Part shown: piece by piece, positions 8,439-60,651 of the stretch
Layout: every line of letters begins with the position of its first letter
How positions within the stretch are numbered: the first letter of the stretch is position 1
Assembly (NCBI GenBank): GCA_001798075.1
Contig: MGRG01000012.1
Location: 91,852-155,851 of the forward strand
Reading direction: 5' to 3'
DNA length: 64,000 bases
From: Deltaproteobacteria bacterium RIFCSPHIGHO2_01_FULL_43_49
GTDB taxonomy: Bacteria; UBA10199; SPLOWO2-01-44-7
Position numbers and translations under genes: made by a program
The notes under the pieces: generated by a model
Told to the model about the DNA's origin: nothing
Seen by the model: the letters and a program-made list of their open reading frames with translations, nothing else
The model's database searches: none

Positions 8439-9018
8439 GGTGCAAAGCCTTTCAAAACCATTTCAAATTGCCTTAAAAGATCTATTTACTTGGTTTCATT
8501 CTTCCAAAGTTCGTGGATTAGTTATTGGAGGGGTAGCGTTGGCTTTTTTGGGGCGTCCCCGTTTGACGAAGGATATTGACGCGTTGGTGATGGTGAATTT
8601 GGATGATGTGGAAAGTTTTTTGAAATCAGGGCGACATTATAGCTTTGTTCCGCGTATCTCGGACCCTATTGCTTTTGCAAAGAAAAATCGGGTGCTACTT
8701 TTGAAACATACAAGAACAAAACTACCAATAGACATTTCTTTAGGAGCGCTTTCGTTTGAAGAAGAAAGTTTTCAACGAAGTAAAAAATTTTATGAGGGAA
8801 ATTTATCTATTCGATTTCCGACAACGGAAGACTTGATTATCATGAAAGCGGTTGCCCATCGCCCCCAGGATTTGGCAGATGTTGAAACACTTTTGTTGGT
8901 AAATCCCAGGGTGGATCTGAGACGTATTCGCAAGTGGGTTAAGGAGTTTGCAAAAGTTCTCGAGATGCCCGAGTTACTTCAAGATTTAGAAAGACTTTTG
9001 AAGGAGACAAAGAAATAA
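8431..9018 (+). CDS. nucleotidyltransferase-fold protein (pol-beta superfamily, AbiEii/MNT-like)
   Basis: LVIGGVALAFLGRPRLTKDIDALV resembles the GG...D.D nucleotidyltransferase motif; C-terminal IMKAVAHRPQDLADVETLL. Confidence 0.5.
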   Translation: MAKVQSLSKPFQIALKDLFTWFHSSKVRGLVIGGVALAFLGRPRLTKDIDALVMVNLDDVESFLKSGRHYSFVPRISDPIAFAKKNRVLLLKHTRTKLPIDISLGALSFEEESFQRSKKFYEGNLSIRFPTTEDLIIMKAVAHRPQDLADVETLLLVNPRVDLRRIRKWVKEFAKVLEMPELLQDLERLLKETKK

Positions 9019-9025
9019 TCCTCTT

Positions 9026-9373
9026 TCAAACGCTCTTTGCTAATTGTGTAGTTTTCTTCTGTATTGTTTCCAGCCGAGACAAATAAGAATCTAACCTGCC
9101 AATTTTCTGGTTGAGTGTTCTGGCTTTCAAATGCCATTTTTTGCCATCGACTGCTTTTAGTTTGGTAACCAATTCACTTTTAGCTTTTGTTGTGCGCTCT
9201 TTTTCTTTTTTCAGTTTGGCCTCACGCTCTTTGAGAAAACTTTTGGCAAACTCTTTGAAAGCAGCTTTGAAAGCTTTTTCACCCTCGGACGAAGTTCTTT
9301 TAAGCTTTTTCTTTTTAAACTCTGGGTTCTTTTTTAAAAACTGACCCCAAGTAAACTTGTGTGCTAACGACAT
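9026..9373 (-). CDS. lysine-rich coiled-coil hypothetical protein (115 aa); its 3' end is the repeated unit of the cassette array
   Basis: Intact ORF with ATG; highly charged K/E-rich sequence; its last 25 codons recur as remnants at 8080-8166 and 7403-7456. Confidence 0.5.
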   Translation of the reverse strand: MSLAHKFTWGQFLKKNPEFKKKKLKRTSSEGEKAFKAAFKEFAKSFLKEREAKLKKEKERTTKAKSELVTKLKAVDGKKWHLKARTLNQKIGRLDSYLSRLETIQKKTTQLAKSV

Positions 9374-9493
9374 AAATCCTCCAATTCAAAGTGGGCGGGA
9401 CTATTATGGAATCGGGCATAAAAATCAAGGGACTTTTTTAGTTGACTAAAATGGTGTTTAAGGAGATCCAAACCTCAAGAAAAGGGGGTTTTT

Positions 9494-9871
9494 ATGGCTT
9501 ACACCAACATCAAACCAAAAGAAGCTTATCAGAGGACAAAAGAGGGATATACCTATCTGGATGTCCGCACCGTTGAGGAATTTCAGGCAGGGCACGCCAA
9601 GGGAGCTGTGAACGTTCCTATCATTTTAAAAACACCGGCTGGGCGTGAGCAAAATCCCAATTTTTTGACCGTTGTTCAGGAAAAATTCCCAAAAGGGACC
9701 AAGTTGGTGATTGGTTGTCATTCGGGTGGGAGGTCAGGGATGGCTTGCCAGGTGTTGCAACCACTAGGCTATGAAGTTTTCAATATCGCCGGCGGTTTTG
9801 GAGGAGGTGTCGATTCCGAAACAGGCGAGACGATCAAAGGTTGGAAAGAGGAAGGACTCCCCGTGGAATAA
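9494..9871 (+). CDS. rhodanese-domain sulfurtransferase
   Basis: Rhodanese fold with active-site Cys in VIGCHSGGRSG. Confidence 0.85.
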   Translation: MAYTNIKPKEAYQRTKEGYTYLDVRTVEEFQAGHAKGAVNVPIILKTPAGREQNPNFLTVVQEKFPKGTKLVIGCHSGGRSGMACQVLQPLGYEVFNIAGGFGGGVDSETGETIKGWKEEGLPVE

Positions 9872-11723: not shown

Positions 11724-11874
11724 AGCGAGTGGCTTGTATCTTAAACTCAAAAGGTAGTCACTACCTTTCTGTAAATTTTACCAAAAGGTAGCGTCTACCT
11801 TTTGATGATGCGCTGCAGCAATTTAATGCGGGCCACCTAGCAACATTCCTTACTTTCTGTCGATAAGGATAGTG

Positions 11875-27254: not shown

Positions 27255-27393
27255 AGGTGCCGATAGATTCCCGCGGGCAAGCCCGTGGTATTCTGGGTCT
27301 CGAGTTTTAGGGAATCTACCCAGCCGCCAAAGGCGGCGAGAGGGGGAGGCTCCATCCCCGCCTTGGCGGGGTGGAGGGGGCGACGCGAGCCCC
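27255..27393. repeat. GC-rich compound palindrome in a divergent intergenic region (candidate structured RNA or regulatory DNA)
   Basis: Nested inverted repeats: AGATTCCC...GGGAATCT enclosing CGGGC-AA-GCCCG, then GCCGCC-AAA-GGCGGC and CCCCGCC-TT-GGCGGGG; a TATAAT hexamer sits 10 nt before the downstream ATG. Confidence 0.4.
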
Positions 27394-27408
27394 TATAATA
27401 GACTCATT

Positions 27409-28194
27409 ATGTTGTCTTCAATACAGGTGAGCGCCTCTTTAGCCGGAGAAGTTGGGTTTTGGGGGCAGGCTGTTTTGCTTGCTCCTAGTGGGTTGCATGC
27501 CGCTTTGCAAACCGGTTTTGATCCTGCTCAAAATGATTTAGAAGAGATTCAGGGTGTCTTACACCCTTTACGAAAAGCTCTTCTTGCGCAACATGTTGAT
27601 TTGTTAGACGTGCCGCCTTCCTTCGAAATTGGTGACAGAGAAAACGCCGCAAACCTTAAAAAAATAGCCACTTCATTTCAAGCCATTCCTCATCATCCAT
27701 ACATGGCGGCAGCCAATGCTGTTTTTTTTGGAGGCGCTCTTCGGTTTGCCACGACAAAAGATGTTTTGGAAAAAATGGCCGTCATTACAGGCCCCCCAAA
27801 TCCTTTTTATGTTTTAGTTGCTCCTGTGATTACTGCTTTTTTTATTTGGGGCGGCGAAATGGAAAGTGCTGCATTGATGCATCGAGATTTGGGAGATATT
27901 TGGATTCGCTCTGATCAGGTAGATAAAGCGAGAGAGGCCTATTGCAAAGAGGGAGATATTTGTTTGAGGTGGGCTGAAGAATTATCAAGGGAGTCAGGAA
28001 TTATACAGGGTGAGGATTCTGAGTTCCGGGCCTATTGTTTGGCGAATCAATATGTACAAAAACTGAGGCTTGCAAAAGAAGCTTACCAAAGAGCAGAATC
28101 GGAAGAGGATTTAAAAAAAATTAGAAGATTTATACAAGAAGGGGAGCGCGAAGCAGAGCATTTACGAATGCGCGCTACTTTTGCAGGCCTTTAG
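27409..28194 (+). CDS. hypothetical protein (261 aa)
   Basis: Intact ORF with ATG; no recognised domain. Confidence 0.5.
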   Translation: MLSSIQVSASLAGEVGFWGQAVLLAPSGLHAALQTGFDPAQNDLEEIQGVLHPLRKALLAQHVDLLDVPPSFEIGDRENAANLKKIATSFQAIPHHPYMAAANAVFFGGALRFATTKDVLEKMAVITGPPNPFYVLVAPVITAFFIWGGEMESAALMHRDLGDIWIRSDQVDKAREAYCKEGDICLRWAEELSRESGIIQGEDSEFRAYCLANQYVQKLRLAKEAYQRAESEEDLKKIRRFIQEGEREAEHLRMRATFAGL

Positions 28195-28196
28195 AT

Positions 28197-28886
28197 TTAA
28201 AAGCGGTGGCTGATTTTTTCGGAAAGATCGTTAGCTTTAAAAGCAGCTAGCGTTCTGGCACAGGACTCGCAAACTCCACACATCTTTTCTTTTCCTTCGT
28301 AGCAACTCCAAAAATTATCGAGAGGAAGATCGAGTTCAATGAGTTTTGCAACCATCTCTTTTTTATTTATTTCTTGAACGTAGCTTTTAACTTTTGGAGG
28401 ATAAAGAAGGGTGGAGAGTTCCAGGGCGCGGTTTAGGCGATGGACATAATCAGAACTATTATCGGGAAAAGTGGCGGCCTCTTCGCGGTTAAAGCCGGTG
28501 ATAATCGTTGTTGCGCCTAAACTTTCCGCAAAAGAAGCCGCGATGTTTAAAAAAACGCCATTGCGGTTGGGGACCCAAACAGCCTCCGCTGATTTTTCGG
28601 TTGCCTTTTTGTCTTTGAGTTTTTCCAAATCGCTAAAACGGGGGAGCAAAGTCGTCGTATGGGTCAGGGCATTTTCACCTAAACTTTTAAGCCAAGGGAG
28701 TTCCACAACCTGATGTTTAATCCGCCAAAGCTTTGCGATTTTTTGTGCCGCTTTGGTTTCTTGGTTGGCTGCTCGCTGGCCGTAGTTGAAGGTAAGTGCC
28801 AAGACCACTTCATGATATTGCTTTGCAACGGCCGTCGAAAGGTAGGAATCTAATCCACCAGAAAGTAGAGTAACAGCGCGATCCAT
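28197..28886 (-). CDS. queC: 7-cyano-7-deazaguanine synthase
   Basis: PP-loop LLSGGLDSYLS and C-terminal zinc-binding cysteines (CGVCESCARTLAAF). Confidence 0.9.
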   Translation of the reverse strand: MDRAVTLLSGGLDSYLSTAVAKQYHEVVLALTFNYGQRAANQETKAAQKIAKLWRIKHQVVELPWLKSLGENALTHTTTLLPRFSDLEKLKDKKATEKSAEAVWVPNRNGVFLNIAASFAESLGATTIITGFNREEAATFPDNSSDYVHRLNRALELSTLLYPPKVKSYVQEINKKEMVAKLIELDLPLDNFWSCYEGKEKMCGVCESCARTLAAFKANDLSEKISHRF

Positions 28887-29402: not shown

Positions 29403-29513
29403 AGTTATCTCCTTGTTTTATATAGTAATCCTATACGTTATTACGCACCGTGTCAATTCCTGTTTTTAGCTTATTTTTTTGCCCCGTCAACCTGATTTAA
29501 ATCAGCTTTCAGC

Positions 29514-29544
29514 ATACCGCACGGTACCAGGTACCTGGCGGTAT
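29514..29544. repeat. REP-like palindrome (ATACCGCACGGTACCAGGTACCTGGCGGTAT)
   Basis: Near-perfect 31-bp palindrome abutting the RAYT stop codon. Confidence 0.8.
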
Positions 29545-30206
29545 TAGAGAACCACTTTTATTCGATTTGCAAGCCCATTTACTTGGTTCACCATCGCCGA
29601 AACCCGGCGTGATGTTGTCGCCTTAGATTCTTCCAAGAGGTTATGAGTTTTATCGGAAGGCAGCGGCGTCATAACAAGTTCTCTGTAAACTCTTTTACGT
29701 TTTTCATCATCGTTCACTAGGCCAAGGTAAGAAGGATGAAATTCTAATAATTCGTTTGGTGTGCCAAATGCATAGTAGGTATAACCACTCCATAACCAAT
29801 CTTCTGGTCTGATTACAAGTCCAGCAGATAGGGAGTTTCTATGCTGATAACGTAAACAAGCTAACGCATAGCGATCATTAGGAATGATATTGCTTCGATA
29901 TCGATGGGCCCAAAAGTGCCCGATTCTGTTATGCCGCTGATTAAAATCTTTAGCATATTTTAAACAAAGTTCCTGCATGATTTGGTCGATAAAATATCCC
30001 GTATGGGTGGAGAGGAGGAGATGGATATGCGAATGAAGCAGTTCATAATTATAAAGCCTGAATGCAAACTTCTCTTTAACCGCAGCTAACATTTCCAAGA
30101 ATATTTTGAAGTCTTCTTCTGTCTGAAGCAAATGCTCTTTGTTATTACATCGCAAAATGGTGTGATAATGAATGTCATCACCTTTGATTCGTGGCGCTCT
30201 AGGCAT
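29544..30206 (-). CDS. REP-associated tyrosine transposase (IS200/IS605 Y1 HUH family)
   Basis: HUH motif HSHIHLLL, conserved Tyr region (HFWAHRYRS), typical ~220-aa size. Confidence 0.85.
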   Translation of the reverse strand: MPRAPRIKGDDIHYHTILRCNNKEHLLQTEEDFKIFLEMLAAVKEKFAFRLYNYELLHSHIHLLLSTHTGYFIDQIMQELCLKYAKDFNQRHNRIGHFWAHRYRSNIIPNDRYALACLRYQHRNSLSAGLVIRPEDWLWSGYTYYAFGTPNELLEFHPSYLGLVNDDEKRKRVYRELVMTPLPSDKTHNLLEESKATTSRRVSAMVNQVNGLANRIKVVL

Positions 30207-30224
30207 GGCAAAACTCCTTTCCCA

Positions 30225-30283
30225 CTTACCGTGTGGTACCTGGTACCAGGCGGTACCGTGGGGTACCTGGTACCGAGTGGTAA
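30225..30283. repeat. REP-like palindrome doublet
   Basis: GTGGTACCTGGTACCAGGCGGTACC followed by GTGGGGTACCTGGTACCGAGTGGTA, directly upstream of the RAYT start. Confidence 0.8.
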
Positions 30284-30383
30284 TGCGAAAGGCGTGCCAA
30301 AATGAAAGGCTTTAGTTTTCAATAGGTTAGATTTTTTGGGGGTGCTGCAACTGACGAAATATGAACAGGTGCCGACGGATTTT

Positions 30384-30412
30384 TACCACCAGGTACCTGG
30401 TACCTGGTGGTA
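30384..30412. repeat. REP-like palindrome (TACCACCAGGTACCTGGTACCTGGTGGTA)
   Basis: Near-perfect palindrome sharing the GGTACC(W)GGTACC core. Confidence 0.8.
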
Positions 30413-30444
30413 TTTTTGGTGGTACTTTAAATTTCCTGATAAGT

Positions 30445-30963
30445 TCACTTAGGCTTCAGCCAGTCTATATTGACGTTGCTACCATCTGAGAGACGTGCAA
30501 GCACCACTCCGCTCAGCTGTTTAGTAAGTGCTAAAACAGTAGCAGTGTTGCCACCGGGTATAATTTTGTCTTTTTCTGGATTTTTCATTAAGTCTCTGTG
30601 ATTTACTTTAGAACCTACTATGAACTTTTCTCCAAACTTGTTTTCGGAGGATGTGATTCTAGGTATAATGGTTATTTTATTTCCATCAGAGAGAATTTCA
30701 GTTCCCGGATCAATATCTACAAATTTAATTTTAGGTGGCACTGTTCCAAAACGATTAACGATTGAGTTGTGGATGGCCTTTGCAGATATTCCTGTATATT
30801 TTGCCCACCCCGCCAAATCATAAATAGGCAGACCGTTGTCCTTAGCTATTTGTTCTACAAGTTTTCCCGCCTTTGCAGGATCGGTTACCACCCCTTGCTG
30901 TAGTAGAACGTCAGCTAATGTGTCTCCTTTTGATGCGACATAGCTAAAAATGGGGATAGTCAT
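30445..30963 (-). CDS. hypothetical protein with possible LysM-like N-terminus
   Basis: Intact ORF with ATG; YVASKGDTLADV is weakly LysM-like. Confidence 0.4.
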   Translation of the reverse strand: MTIPIFSYVASKGDTLADVLLQQGVVTDPAKAGKLVEQIAKDNGLPIYDLAGWAKYTGISAKAIHNSIVNRFGTVPPKIKFVDIDPGTEILSDGNKITIIPRITSSENKFGEKFIVGSKVNHRDLMKNPEKDKIIPGGNTATVLALTKQLSGVVLARLSDGSNVNIDWLKPK

Positions 30964-31234
30964 AACGTCCTCCTTTGTTGTACCAACATCAAATTACAGC
31001 AAATTGCGTGCCAAAACGTACGCACTTTTCGGGCCAGCCTCAGCATAAGAATTAGTTATGATTTTATTATGGTTTTTAGTTTCATTGAATTTTTACACAT
31101 GCTCAGAGCATCTCGGAATGGGTGAAAATGTACCATTTTTCTGCTGGAAACTTTTTTATTTTGGGGGCAACATTTCTATTGCTCAAAGTGTCATCAAAAT
31201 TTTGACGCTTTCCAATTTTATCTGACGATCAACA

Positions 31235-31335
31235 TCACTTCAAATCTTTAATCTTTAGCTGAATGGTTTTGATGTTGAGGTAGGTGTTCCATTGAGGGAC
31301 AAAGGCGATGTTGCCGCTACTTAGTGTTTACCGCC
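31235..31335 (-). pseudogene. duplicated 3' remnant of recJ (encodes ..GNIAFVPQWNTYLNIKTIQLKIKDLK*)
   Basis: Reverse-complement translation matches the true RecJ C-terminus (GGNVAFVPQWNTYQNQKTIQLKIKDLKRI*); about 80% nucleotide identity to 34118-34205 by eye. Confidence 0.7.
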
Positions 31336-31456
31336 AGATACCTAGTGGTACAGTGCACCAGATCCTGAATAGACACGTAGTGTCAACGCAATCGCCTGAG
31401 ATCGAATAGTTAATTATAACTTGACAGTATTTGAGGCCAAAATAGACTTGTGCTGT

Positions 31457-31849: not shown

Positions 31850-34104
31850 AGTTTTCCCGTTTTGGGATTTTAGTCATCGGTTCTTTGCTGGTTGTTGTTG
31901 TCGGCATCTCTTTTATCCATTTTCAGCGAGAGCAGACCGCTCTTCGCGATGACCTCAACCGACGCGCCCGTGTGATCTCAAAAAGCCTCGCGCCGCCTGC
32001 AATCCGTATCTTGAAGAATCCCCCCGCCATTGACGAAGAAGACGTTGCGGAGCGGTTGGAGGGGCAGGGTCGTACTATCGGACTCATGATTTGCAACCTT
32101 GAGGGAAAACCGATCGCATTGTCGTCGACACTGACTGACACAGTAACCTGCAACGATGAGGTCATGGCCACGTTGGAAAGCGGAAAGGAATCTATTTTAC
32201 TGGATGAAATAGGGGGTCAGTCGCTCCACCGCCTGATTTTGCCATTGAAAGATCGCACCGGTTCTCTTCTTGGCACCCTTACCATCGTTCACGATTCCTC
32301 ATACATTACCAAACGGGTCACGTCCGCAGTCACCTGGATGACCCTCAGCCTCGCCATTTTGGCGATTGTCATTGCTCTTGGAACCTATCTTGCCTCTCGT
32401 CGCTCATTCCAAAGGTCGGTCACTCAGCTCCTCGACTGGATGAAATCATCGAAGAGTGCGGAAGACCTCCCTCCACCCACCGAATCTCTTTTGAGACCTG
32501 TCTCCAGGGAGGTTGAAAAGCTGACCGCGCGGCTACGGGCGGCCAAAGAGACAGCCAAAGAGGTTTCGGAGGCAAATCGTGTGAGTAATCTTTGGACTGG
32601 GGCACGACTCAAGGGTCACGCTACGTTTTCTATCGGAAATAAATCGCTGATCGTTGTTTCCAACCGGGAACCATACATGCATGTCAAGAAGGAGGGAAAA
32701 CAGCGAGTCATCATCCCTGCCAGCGGTCTTGTAACAGCCCTCGATCCCGTCCTTCGGGCGACGAGCGGTATCTGGATTGCCCACGGGTCAGGAGAAGAGG
32801 ACCGCGACTTTGTGAATAGTGAGGACAAGATTCTGGTACCGCCAGAGTCTCCGCTTTATACGCTTCGCCGGATCTGGCTCACGCGAGAAGAAGAAGAGCG
32901 ATACTATTATGGCTTCTCCAACGAGGCAGTCTGGCCCCTCTGCCATCTCACCCATCACCGTCCACATTTTGAGGAGAAGGACTGGCAGTCTTACATAAAG
33001 GTGAATGAGAAATTTGCCGACGCTGTCCTCCAAGAATGTGGCAAAGACCAACCGTTTGTCCTAGTTCAGGATTATCATTTTACCCTGCTCCCAAAGTTGA
33101 TTCGCGAGAGGCGGCCGGATGCCGTGGTTGGCCTTTTCTGGCACATTCCCTGGCCTACGCCTGAATCGTTTCAAATCTGTCCCTGGAAACGAGAGATATT
33201 GGAAGGGATGCTGGGAGCAAATTTTGTAGGTTTTCATCTGCAATCGTACTGCAACAACTTCCTGGACACTGTAAACAGCCTTCTCCCTGTGCGAATTGAT
33301 TGGGATCGACCTGGCATCCTTCACAATGAAGGCTTAACAACGGTCAAACCGTTTCCCATTGGCGTCCAGTTGTGGTCGGAGCGAGGAGTCGCTTCAGATG
33401 AGAGATTTCGGGAAAAAGCAAATATGTGGCGGAAGGAGTTGGAGTTAAATGCCAAGCGTCTGATCGTGAGCGTTGATCGGCTCGATTACACCAAGGGGAT
33501 TCCAGAGAGGATTGGTGCCATTGATCGGTTTTTGGAAAAGTATCCAGCCCATCGGGGAAAAGTTGTCTTTGTTCAACTTGCGGCCCCCAGCCGGGTTCAC
33601 ATCCCCCGTTACAGAGAATTTGTGACAGAGGTGGAGGGGCTTGTGGAACAAATCAATTGGAGACATGGGACAGAAGACTGGAAACCGATTCTTTTTCTCA
33701 AATCGCATCATGACCCCGAAACAGTTTATACCTTTCTGCGGATGGCCGATGTTTGCATCATTAGCTCTCTTTCAGACGGCATGAATCTTGTCGCCAAGGA
33801 ATTTGTCGCGGCGCGAGAAAAGGGAGATGGAGTGTTGATCCTTTCGGAATTTACCGGGGCCGCTCGGGAGTTTCAAGACGCGTTGCAGATCAATCCCTAT
33901 GCCCGTGCCGACTTTGCCGAGGTCATCAGGGTGGCCATTGAGATGCCGATGGAAGAGCAAAAAAAACGGATGAGCCGGATGAAAGCACAGGTCATAGAGC
34001 ACAATGTCTACGGATGGGCCGCGAATCTTATCACGGAAATGACTCAAACTGTAGAAGTCGGCATTTCATCCCGTCAAGATTTTCAAACAAGCAAGTACCT
34101 TTAA
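31846..34104 (+). CDS. otsA: trehalose-6-phosphate synthase (GT20) with ~265-aa N-terminal membrane-anchored extension
   Basis: GT20 catalytic region from about 32640 (LIVVSNREPY, FWHIPWPTPE, ANFVGFHLQSY); two predicted TM helices upstream (FGILVIGSLLVVVVGISFIHF; VTWMTLSLAILAIVIALGTYLA). Confidence 0.85.
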   Translation: MKFSRFGILVIGSLLVVVVGISFIHFQREQTALRDDLNRRARVISKSLAPPAIRILKNPPAIDEEDVAERLEGQGRTIGLMICNLEGKPIALSSTLTDTVTCNDEVMATLESGKESILLDEIGGQSLHRLILPLKDRTGSLLGTLTIVHDSSYITKRVTSAVTWMTLSLAILAIVIALGTYLASRRSFQRSVTQLLDWMKSSKSAEDLPPPTESLLRPVSREVEKLTARLRAAKETAKEVSEANRVSNLWTGARLKGHATFSIGNKSLIVVSNREPYMHVKKEGKQRVIIPASGLVTALDPVLRATSGIWIAHGSGEEDRDFVNSEDKILVPPESPLYTLRRIWLTREEEERYYYGFSNEAVWPLCHLTHHRPHFEEKDWQSYIKVNEKFADAVLQECGKDQPFVLVQDYHFTLLPKLIRERRPDAVVGLFWHIPWPTPESFQICPWKREILEGMLGANFVGFHLQSYCNNFLDTVNSLLPVRIDWDRPGILHNEGLTTVKPFPIGVQLWSERGVASDERFREKANMWRKELELNAKRLIVSVDRLDYTKGIPERIGAIDRFLEKYPAHRGKVVFVQLAAPSRVHIPRYREFVTEVEGLVEQINWRHGTEDWKPILFLKSHHDPETVYTFLRMADVCIISSLSDGMNLVAKEFVAAREKGDGVLILSEFTGAAREFQDALQINPYARADFAEVIRVAIEMPMEEQKKRMSRMKAQVIEHNVYGWAANLITEMTQTVEVGISSRQDFQTSKYL

Positions 34105-60411: not shown

Positions 60412-60459
60412 TTCACATTTTTCGGAGCACCTATGCGAAAACACCCTATCTTAATGATT

Positions 60460-60546
60460 GGAGTGAATGGGTGGCCCGGAGTGTTTGCTGTGGGGTTTAG
60501 TTAGGGGCCCCCACAGAAACACGGAGGGGCAGGACCCGTTCACTCC
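60460..60546 (+). repeat. palindromic structured element, copy 2
   Basis: Same core as 42212-42300 with a different but still complementary outer stem (GGAGTGAA / TTCACTCC). Confidence 0.65.
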
Positions 60547-60651
60547 ACTCAATATTATTAAGGTGTTTTCGCAAAGGTCGGAGAAGTCTATGCATAGAAC
60601 TTGCATTAATTCAAAAGACAAGCTATGGCGAGCGAATAATAAGGAGGATTC

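Follow-up and report, generated by a model that had tools for sequence, protein, structure and literature searches.

A single-copy Y1 transposase-like gene and the dispersed 29-nt palindromes that bracket it in an uncultured groundwater bacterium

A transposase-like gene bracketed by GGTACC palindromes

The window analyzed here, 64,000 nucleotides (64 kb) of contig MGRG01000012.1 from Deltaproteobacteria bacterium RIFCSPHIGHO2_01_FULL_43_49, contains a transposase-like gene of the HUH/Y1 type, and four copies of a 29-nt palindrome, TACC-N4-GGTACC-W-GGTACC-N4-GGTA, bracket that gene (Table 1). A preliminary description of the region had proposed a 220-aa HUH/Y1 transposase at this position. The open reading frame (ORF) found there scores 53 bits against the Pfam model Y1_Tnp (PF01797), for which the cut-off is 23; the match covers residues 11-111 and is the sole Pfam domain. 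The bracketing GGTACC-core palindromes likewise lie where they had been described, to within 1-2 nt. The sequence GGTACCWGGTACC occurs four times in the window, at 29523, 30235, 30262 and 30392, while shuffled versions of the window give 0.00.

As single-stranded DNA, single units form hairpins of 12-13 bp, some perfect and others interrupted next to the inner stem by a 2x2 internal loop, at z scores from -3.7 to -6.5. The doublet made by palindromes 2 and 3 folds more weakly (z about -2 to -2.5); the same doublet form recurs at L015 and L049/L054, these being our designations for loci retrieved from other contigs. Palindrome 4 is the outer boundary of the conserved unit in an alignment with the homologous locus L008. 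A further, degenerate copy had been proposed at 31329-31366. One 18-nt arm there is indeed 89% complementary to 29526-29543; the core is not intact, however, and the hairpin is not significant (z = +0.33), and by its sequence this stretch may at most be a remnant. The rest of the window contains no further 29-mer, even with 5 mismatches allowed at the 20 fixed positions.

A scan of the 27-33 kb interval with Rfam returned one sub-threshold chance match to a microRNA family and nothing more, so that no known RNA element accounts for the palindromes. Two other candidate roles were considered and rejected. As for a terminator, a run of T follows copy 4 alone, and does so on the strand that has no upstream gene. 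As for restriction-modification and avoidance of GGTACC, the hexamer occurs six times in the 64 kb outside the locus, which is ordinary for hexamers of such composition.

Table 1. Features of the transposase-like locus and its surroundings, in window coordinates
Feature	Position	Strand	Remarks
Transposase-like gene	29544..30206	-	220-aa HUH/Y1 protein, RAYT-like, class-2 TnpA-Y1 (ORF list, Pfam)
Palindrome 1, TACCGCACGGTACCAGGTACCTGGCGGTA	29515..29543	.	adjoins the stop codon of the gene; hairpin with 2x2 internal loop, dG -9.7 kcal/mol, z -3.7
Shine-Dalgarno AAGGAG	30214..30219	-	7 nt 5' of the ATG (read from the sequence)
Palindrome 2, TACCGTGTGGTACCTGGTACCAGGCGGTA	30227..30255	.	within predicted 5' untranslated region; doublet begins 21 nt 5' of the ATG
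Palindrome 3, TACCGTGGGGTACCTGGTACCGAGTGGTA	30254..30282	.	overlaps palindrome 2 through one common GGTACC, giving a head-to-tail doublet
Sigma-54-type promoter, TGGCACGCCTTTCGCA	30284..30299	-	TGGCAC-GCCTT-TCGCA, 10/11 consensus positions, GG/GC kept; 1 nt from palindrome 3
Palindrome 4, TACCACCAGGTACCTGGTACCTGGTGGTA	30384..30412	.	perfect 14+1+14, 100% complementary; dG -13.5 kcal/mol, z -6.3
Tandem duplication of outer arm, TGGTGGTATTTT / TGGTGGTACTTT	30405..30428	+	direct repeat; alignment with L008 conserved up to here
Neighboring ORF	30445-30963	-	172 aa
Perfect sigma-54-type promoter, TGGCACGCAATTTGCT	30998-31013	-	about 34 nt 5' of the ATG of the 172-aa ORF
Possible decayed remnant, TACCGCCAGATACCTAGTGGTA	31329..31350	.	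one arm family-like, core not intact
queC	28197-28886	-	

The encoded protein resembles RAYT proteins

An exact protein look-up showed that the gene product is identical to GenBank OGQ04402.1, annotated as 'hypothetical protein'. The identical product is encoded in four sibling metagenome-assembled genomes (MAGs) from Rifle groundwater, among them 'Deltaproteobacteria bacterium RIFCSPLOWO2_01_44_7'. It appears on 24 contigs, with the same gene context in all 24, and 158 kb of its genome revealed no second copy or paralog of the gene.

H60-I-H62 forms the HUH motif, and Y120, within YQHRNS, is the catalytic tyrosine. In an alignment of 38 relatives, at 26-90% identity, the invariant positions are H15, R19, H60, H62, G96, H97, R102, Y120, N124, W139, S140 and Y174, the last three of which belong to a C-terminal extension of about 80 residues. 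The residue following N124 is serine in the window protein and proline in most relatives. The pattern Y-x3-N(P) is the signature of class-2 TnpA-Y1 proteins; the corresponding motif of IS200 transposases is Y-x3-Q (Quentin et al. 2018, PMC6006769). Judged by its sequence, the window protein carries the class-2 signature together with an intact HUH motif and catalytic tyrosine.

Among NCBIfam models, the best for the window protein and for all 38 aligned relatives is NF047646, which describes the REP-associated tyrosine transposases (RAYT), where REP stands for repetitive extragenic palindromic sequences. The window protein scores 54 bits against this model (cut-off 80) and 30 bits against the IS200 model NF033573 (cut-off 55). 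A family-profile search of the PDB ranked E. coli TnpA-REP (4ER8) first, at an E-value of 1.8e-4, with an alignment that spans YxxxNPV...W.S, that is, the tyrosine helix. An AlphaFold model of the protein has a pLDDT of 91.7, and its top match by Foldseek is again 4ER8 (E-value 1.4e-7, TM score 0.73 on the target), followed in ranks 2-30 by IS608, ISDra2 and IS200 transposases. The possibility that the protein would classify as a conventional IS200 TnpA, raised in the preliminary description, thus does not agree with its Y-x3-N motif, its model scores, its best structure or its single-copy status.

The motifs SHIH, FWA and YQHRNS have an exact counterpart in no tabulated TnpA-Y1 subclass. The family stands nearest to subclass 2.1 (Bertels Group 1) in length, WS tail motif and host group. 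The most distant homologs, P0056-58 at 26-31% identity, carry a C-terminal helix-turn-helix (HTH) domain, and the window protein is without one.

Copies of the palindrome are dispersed in the same genome

A scan of JGI metagenomes with the palindrome pattern retrieved 52 loci. About 25 of these, at 42-50% G+C (most at 43-46%), carry the family TACC-R-Y-N-N-GGTACC-W-GGTACC-T-G-G-Y-GGTA. The full 29-nt pattern, run against a genome collection with one genome per species, gave a single match, L003, in a different MAG. Some of the metagenome loci (L009, L013, L016, L022/L027/L052 and L033, unrelated contigs at 38-67% G+C) contain tandem GGTACC-containing short repeats, for example GGTACCGACCGGTACCC…, that do not belong to the 29-mer family.

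Ten proteins from eight loci (L007, L012, L014, L017, L023, L042, L044 and L051) are 100% identical to proteins of the four MAGs that bear the gene, and L015 and L041 share a 484-kb contig with L014 and L042. On this assignment, the genome has, beyond the locus under study, 10 loci that between them carry at least 11 strict copies and 2 near ones, for a strict total of at least 15. This count is a lower bound because the scan missed the genome's own gene locus. Base composition leads to an estimate of about 3e-5 strict copies by chance per 4 Mb. The palindrome is therefore unique to the locus within the window, but not within the genome.

All 15 copies start with TACC and end with GGTA, and the bases that flank them are not conserved, which makes the 29-mer itself the element. 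At positions 4 and 24, the unit mostly has A/T or G/C pairs, and perfect copies have ACCA/TGGT or GCCA/TGGC. None of the 10 dispersed loci has a Y1 transposase gene beside the palindrome.

The dispersed copies differ in their placement relative to genes. The copy at L007 lies 23 nt 3' of the alaS stop codon. Several precede genes: 46 nt 5' of a dtxR-like gene that is divergent from mraZ (L023), 44 nt 5' of hemE (L042), 3 nt 5' of the greA ATG, where the ribosome-binding site would be expected (L041), and directly 5' of feoB, whose ATG falls in the arm of an adjacent degenerate copy (L015). At L051, the ATG of a response-regulator gene is inside the copy's own arm (ATGGTA), and at L012 two copies lie just 5' of, or inside an N-terminal extension of, a Ser/Thr kinase gene. 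Three more are within coding regions and in frame, encoding residues 65-75 of PrmC (L044), residues 230-239 of a SAM hydroxide adenosyltransferase (SAM_HAT; L014) and residues 9-18, within the signal peptide, of a TPR protein (L017). In sum, three of the 10 loci are in-frame coding, six (one of them also coding) have the copy no more than about 50 nt from a start codon, and one has it 3' of a gene. Classical REP sequences favor sites between convergent genes (Di Nocera et al. 2013, PMC3733652). A preference of this kind, which the preliminary description had suggested looking for, was not borne out, as none of the 10 loci lies between convergent genes.

The three coding copies differ in their effect on protein length. 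Compared with the solved homolog PH0463, the SAM_HAT protein has seven inserted residues (PPGTRYH) where the copy lies. The ortholog of the TPR protein in L064, which is syntenic, is 11 residues shorter exactly at the site of the copy. In prmC, there is no net change in length relative to E. coli HemK. The unit can be tolerated inside genes because its conserved part has no stop codon in any frame.

Some additional observations concern individual copies. The start codons that fall within a palindrome arm (…CTATGGTA…) are at L015 909-917 for feoB and at L051 4292-4300 (minus strand) for the response-regulator gene, and both proteins start M-V-N. Palindromes resembling DtxR boxes, TTAGTATTACCTAAC (L015 835-860) and TTAGCCTATACTAAC (L023 10630-10650), lie a few to about 20 bases from the 29-mer, 5' of feoB and of the dtxR-like gene; this adjacency may be coincidental. 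The intergenic copy between the dtxR-like gene and mraZ occupies the same position in three species, one of them a MAG at 54% G+C, in regions of 70-80% nucleotide identity (L023 10672-10700, L003 2041-2069 and L037 104-130). Its core and a flanking block are invariant and the N4 bases vary, which would fit either long persistence or a host function.

Homologous loci, their palindromes and their inheritance

Homologous loci were found through protein look-up (eight) and in the metagenome scan (L008 and L050). The core GGTACC-W-GGTACC accompanies homologs with 90% (L008), 62% (L059) and 39% (L062) protein identity to the window protein. The core is GGTACC-T-GCTACC in L056 (60%), GTGCC-W-GGCAC in L058 and L065 (58% and 57%), GAAGC-W-GCTTC in L064 (47%) and (A/G)GTACC-S-GGTAC(T/C) in L050 (41%), and L060 (44%) has a longer hairpin. 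Palindromes stand on both sides of the gene in L008, L056, L059, L060, L064, L065 and L050, and upstream only in L058 and L062. No paired core was found at L063, a homolog with 38% identity whose contig stops 29 nt past the gene. The arrangement of gene and palindrome thus recurs in at least eight other genomes, and, as far as the aligned sequences tell, palindrome cores covary with the protein clade, a pattern that a nuclease and its substrate would be expected to show.

The palindrome type of L050 (ACCAAAAGGTACC...) is itself dispersed, on contigs L004-L006, L020, L025, L028 and L038. At 11762-11807 of the window, a hairpin, ACCAAAAGGTAGCGTCTACCTTTTG, resembles this 'AAAA/TTTT' family (ACCAAAAGGTACC-W-GGTACCTTTTGGT), whose members lie on other metagenome contigs and beside the homolog in L050; the hairpin could be a decayed copy or simply a terminator. 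In at least two homologs, the gene runs into the 3' palindrome, so that its last residues, …H-M/L-V-P-G-T-I, are palindrome-encoded (L059 9262-9280; C-termini of P0004 and P0019). In L063, a gene for a group II intron reverse transcriptase (8482-9810) lies directly 5' of the homolog, and the distant homolog in L062 (2137-13043) lies amid toxin-antitoxin pairs (PemK/MazE, HicAB, HEPN/NTase).

Four homologs from different organisms, L056, L058, L059 and L065, occupy a common syntenic site with the order acyltransferase, homolog, rpe, fmt, def and priA, which argues for vertical inheritance. With one context on 24 contigs, 158 kb without a paralog and these four syntenic relatives, the gene is single-copy and inherited like a housekeeping gene.

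The closest comparison is with L008, from a related species. From palindrome to palindrome, the unit is 93% identical in nucleotide sequence (window 29480-30450, L008 780-1760). A neighboring 171-aa protein is 72% identical in amino acid sequence, and the prmC loci of the two species are 84% identical in nucleotide sequence. The high identity of the unit could reflect slow evolution or recent exchange. The right flanks are unrelated, with L008 running into an ORF of Gly-Pro-rich repeats. The view that the region between queC and recJ is recombinationally active gains indirect support here: synteny with L008 breaks at the right-hand palindrome, and the gene in more distant relatives is at a different, conserved site.

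The genes around the locus are those listed in the preliminary description, with queC on one side and, to the right of the transposase-like gene, a low-molecular-weight phosphatase gene (LMWPc), otsA and recJ. Neither the ORF list nor the contexts of the exact protein include a tnpB-like neighbor. The segment 31421-34104, which holds the LMWPc phosphatase gene and otsA, and especially 32001-34000, has a G+C fraction of 0.515, compared with about 0.44 elsewhere in the window; the two ORFs overlap each other. This composition fits the earlier idea that an arsC/otsA segment may have been acquired. Elsewhere in the window, 60421-60586 and 27310-27420 are 75-80% identical to L051 711-880 and L006 3927-4035, and are probably paralogous or conserved gene segments.

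A predicted sigma-54-type promoter next to the proximal palindrome

The sigma-54-type promoter predicted upstream of the transposase-like gene (Table 1), which also appears as a short direct repeat in the repeat search of the window, is so close to palindrome 3 that the predicted start site falls inside that palindrome, with palindrome 2 in the 5' untranslated region. A site matching 10-11 of 11 consensus positions is found 5' of the gene in seven homologous loci (L008, L058, L059, L065, L064, L060 and L050). The site in L056 is degenerate (8/11), and none was found upstream of the gene in the relatives with 38-39% identity. The order promoter, palindrome, Shine-Dalgarno, ATG is kept in L008, L058, L059 and L065, and in L056 with its degenerate site; the palindrome is upstream of the promoter in L064, L060 and L050.

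Five sigma-54-type sites occur in the whole window, counting both strands. One of them is the perfect site that precedes the neighboring 172-aa ORF, and from this pairing of sites the transposase-like gene and its neighbor may be co-regulated. A search of 158 kb of the genome for a sigma-54 gene, or for an enhancer-binding activator by GAFTGA or RpoN-box motifs, found none. A literature search by keyword, pairing RAYT with sigma-54 terms, returned no report of a link. We infer sigma-54 control of the transposase-like gene from the conserved site.

Interpretation

The anatomy of the locus, the dispersal of its palindrome in the same genome, the single-copy gene, its synteny, the covariation of core and protein and the intact catalytic residues point, with good confidence, to a REPtron: a domesticated HUH/Y1 single-stranded DNA transposase (RAYT-like, class-2 TnpA-Y1), present in single copy and vertically inherited, with its cognate short palindromic repeats. 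The preliminary description had called the arrangement a classical case of RAYT with REP and bacterial interspersed mosaic elements (BIMEs). The association of a RAYT with repeats stands; the rest of that comparison does not, since the repeats show neither a GT[AG]G foot nor a BIME mosaic, occur in few copies, and at three of 10 dispersed loci are in-frame coding, while at none of the 10 do they lie between convergent genes.

Several points weigh against a REPtron. The score against the RAYT model is below its equivalog threshold, and a single-sequence phmmer search of the PDB gave zero matches. The GT[AG]G foot of E. coli REP sequences is missing. Copies are sparse, at about one per 100 kb on the contigs that have them, and the remaining 63 kb of the window lack any. 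The assignment of dispersed loci to the genome depends on binning by the original authors, though with agreement among four independent MAGs. The loci retrieved by pattern, a sample biased toward presence, included no empty orthologous site. Finally, some copies are retained at orthologous sites across species with 70-84% nucleotide identity, which could equally be due to a host function.

By analogy with TnpA-REP and with the TnpA of IS608, the Y1 protein would bind one DNA strand folded into the hairpin and cleave beside that hairpin through Y120, presumably assisted by a metal site at H60/H62. It would then rejoin strands, and over evolutionary time 29-mers might be copied or moved. The 2x2 mismatch beside the inner GGTACC stem may, again by analogy, give imperfect copies a polarity. 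Expression would be driven by the sigma-54 promoter that abuts the proximal palindrome, in which case the gene should be silent without an activator, and the protein, on binding that palindrome, could in turn act on the promoter or 5' untranslated region of its own gene.

A more specific proposal goes further than the REPtron assignment, and we offer it tentatively, as rather less than an even bet. It holds that the proteins form an undescribed RAYT-like clade of uncultured groundwater and sediment bacteria (the named sources are all 'Deltaproteobacteria' MAGs), nearest to the supposedly REP-less subclass 2.1. This clade would recognize a symmetric 29-nt palindrome without GTAG, whose core is kept down to 39% protein identity, and would keep that palindrome at low copy, including in frame in essential genes and at start codons. 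Its expression would start at a conserved sigma-54 promoter joined directly to the proximal palindrome, amounting to signal-dependent, activator-gated control of a domesticated transposase.

An alternative that we consider unlikely makes the 29-mers chiefly regulatory operators, of the RAYT-derived protein or of some other dimeric regulator, kept by selection at promoters and 5' ends rather than placed by transposition. Retention at orthologous sites and the DtxR-box-like motifs next to two copies (L015 and L023) suggested this reading. It would explain why the copy between the dtxR-like gene and mraZ persists at the same spot in three species at 70-80% identity with differing N4 bases, and why six of the 10 dispersed loci have the unit within about 50 nt of, or over, a start codon (those of greA, hemE, the dtxR-like gene, feoB, the response-regulator gene and the TPR-protein gene). 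One copy, moreover, is at the gene's own sigma-54 promoter, and the units are exact twofold-symmetric duplex sites. An operator is not expected, however, in frame within coding sequences, as at three loci, or 23 nt past the alaS stop codon; the adjacent genes have no common functional theme; and the core covaries with a Y1 protein clade whose members keep all catalytic residues. The two readings are compatible and do not exclude each other, but because of the in-frame copies in genes and the covariation with the Y1 protein, the operator reading is only a minor rival to the REPtron.

We regard it as very unlikely that the locus is an autonomous minimal IS200-like insertion sequence (IS), with tnpA alone in about 900 bp, the palindromes as left and right subterminal hairpins, and the dispersed 29-mers as solo ends or footprints. 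Similar hairpins at both ends are what IS608 and IS200 have. The 93% identity to L008 between the outer palindromes, with an alignment that collapses right outside them and a right flank that is not syntenic, is also what a mobile unit would leave, and the different site of the gene in more distant relatives means that the unit has moved at least once. Such an IS fits poorly, however, with an exact protein found in one context only on 24 contigs, with 158 kb free of a second copy, and with one syntenic site kept in four genomes. The protein itself scores under the cut-off of the IS200 model and lower there than with the RAYT model, has Y---N rather than Y---Q, and lacks a tnpB partner, and each dispersed unit is a whole palindrome rather than a one-sided end. 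A chance cluster of low-complexity KpnI-site sequence, unlinked to the ORF, has nothing in its favor except that GGTACC is palindromic on its own, and it can be dismissed in view of the shuffles (0.00), the expectation of about 3e-5 strict copies per 4 Mb, the ordinary frequency of GGTACC elsewhere in the window and the recurrence of the arrangement in at least eight other genomes.

RAYT proteins and their REP sequences are the best-studied case of transposase domestication in bacteria. Work on them has dealt almost wholly with high-copy GTAG REPs in Enterobacteria and Pseudomonas. The lineage described here would be a small, tractable version, with about 15 nearly identical 29-mers and a cognate protein that has a confident structural model. 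Its natural in-frame insertions mark permissive sites in proteins. The conserved sigma-54 promoter suggests a nuclease switched on only by a specific signal, and such a promoter, if real, offers direct access to the timing of RAYT activity.

Comparison with known systems

The type of system is already recognized and the form is undescribed, its distinctive features being the symmetric GGTACC palindrome, the in-frame copies in genes and the conserved sigma-54 promoter. The E. coli REPtron (TnpA-REP/RAYT, YafM, 4ER8; Quentin subclass 2.2, Bertels Group 2) is like it in having the HUH/Y1 fold, being the best structural and profile match, and in having a Y---NP-type motif followed by a W-S motif. 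In both, a single-copy, vertically inherited gene is bracketed by palindromes that are also dispersed. The proteins are only about 18% identical, and the window protein is 55 residues longer, with a helical C-terminal extension. E. coli REP sequences number several hundred, compared with 15 strict copies here. Unlike E. coli REPs, with their GT[AG]G foot, the unit here is palindromic over its full 29 nt and contains GGTACC twice; it is found within genes and at their 5' ends without BIME mosaics, and the gene has a sigma-54-type promoter.

Subclass 2.1 (Bertels Group 1), reported to lack REP-like sequences nearby and typically to have a C-terminal HTH (Quentin et al. 2018, PMC6006769), is of similar length class (median 238 aa), has a WS(S/G) tail and is prevalent in delta-proteobacteria. 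The 16-mers that flank Bertels Group 1 genes amount to about 12 per replicon (PMC5581495), an abundance as low as that of the family described here, with its at least 15 copies. In TIRYT/TIRtron systems, the flanking repeats fit GGGGWSAS (Di Nocera et al. 2013, PMC3733652). Unlike these and subclass 2.1, the locus here has hairpin-forming GGTACC palindromes with dispersed copies, and its protein has no HTH domain. TnpA-Y1 subclasses 2.6 and 3, noted for 'atypical secondary structures' (Quentin et al. 2018), share non-GTAG hairpins that flank the gene and have copies elsewhere in the genome; subclass 2.6, however, is from Bacteroidetes, and class 3 has Y----Q motifs and a CnGA foot, in contrast to the Y---N of the window protein. 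REPs within genes are known (Di Nocera 2013), and subclass 2.4 REPs lie inside tnpA-REP (Quentin et al. 2018, PMC6006769).

Proteins of the IS200/IS605 type (IS608, ISDra2; subclass 1.1) share the fold of the catalytic core and, if the analogy holds for the window protein, the recognition of subterminal hairpins in single-stranded DNA. The system described here differs from them in its Y---N in place of Y---Q, its single-copy gene, the lack of tnpB and its solo hairpins dispersed without the gene.

The copies inside coding regions have a further parallel in the palindromic elements of Rickettsia, which Ogata and co-workers are said to have found, in 2000, inserted in frame in genes. In both cases a short palindrome that is open in all frames is tolerated in otherwise intact proteins, here in surface loops and a signal peptide. 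The Rickettsia elements are roughly 100-150 nt long, and the unit described here differs from them in being far shorter, at 29 nt, and in being tied to an identifiable cognate Y1 protein.

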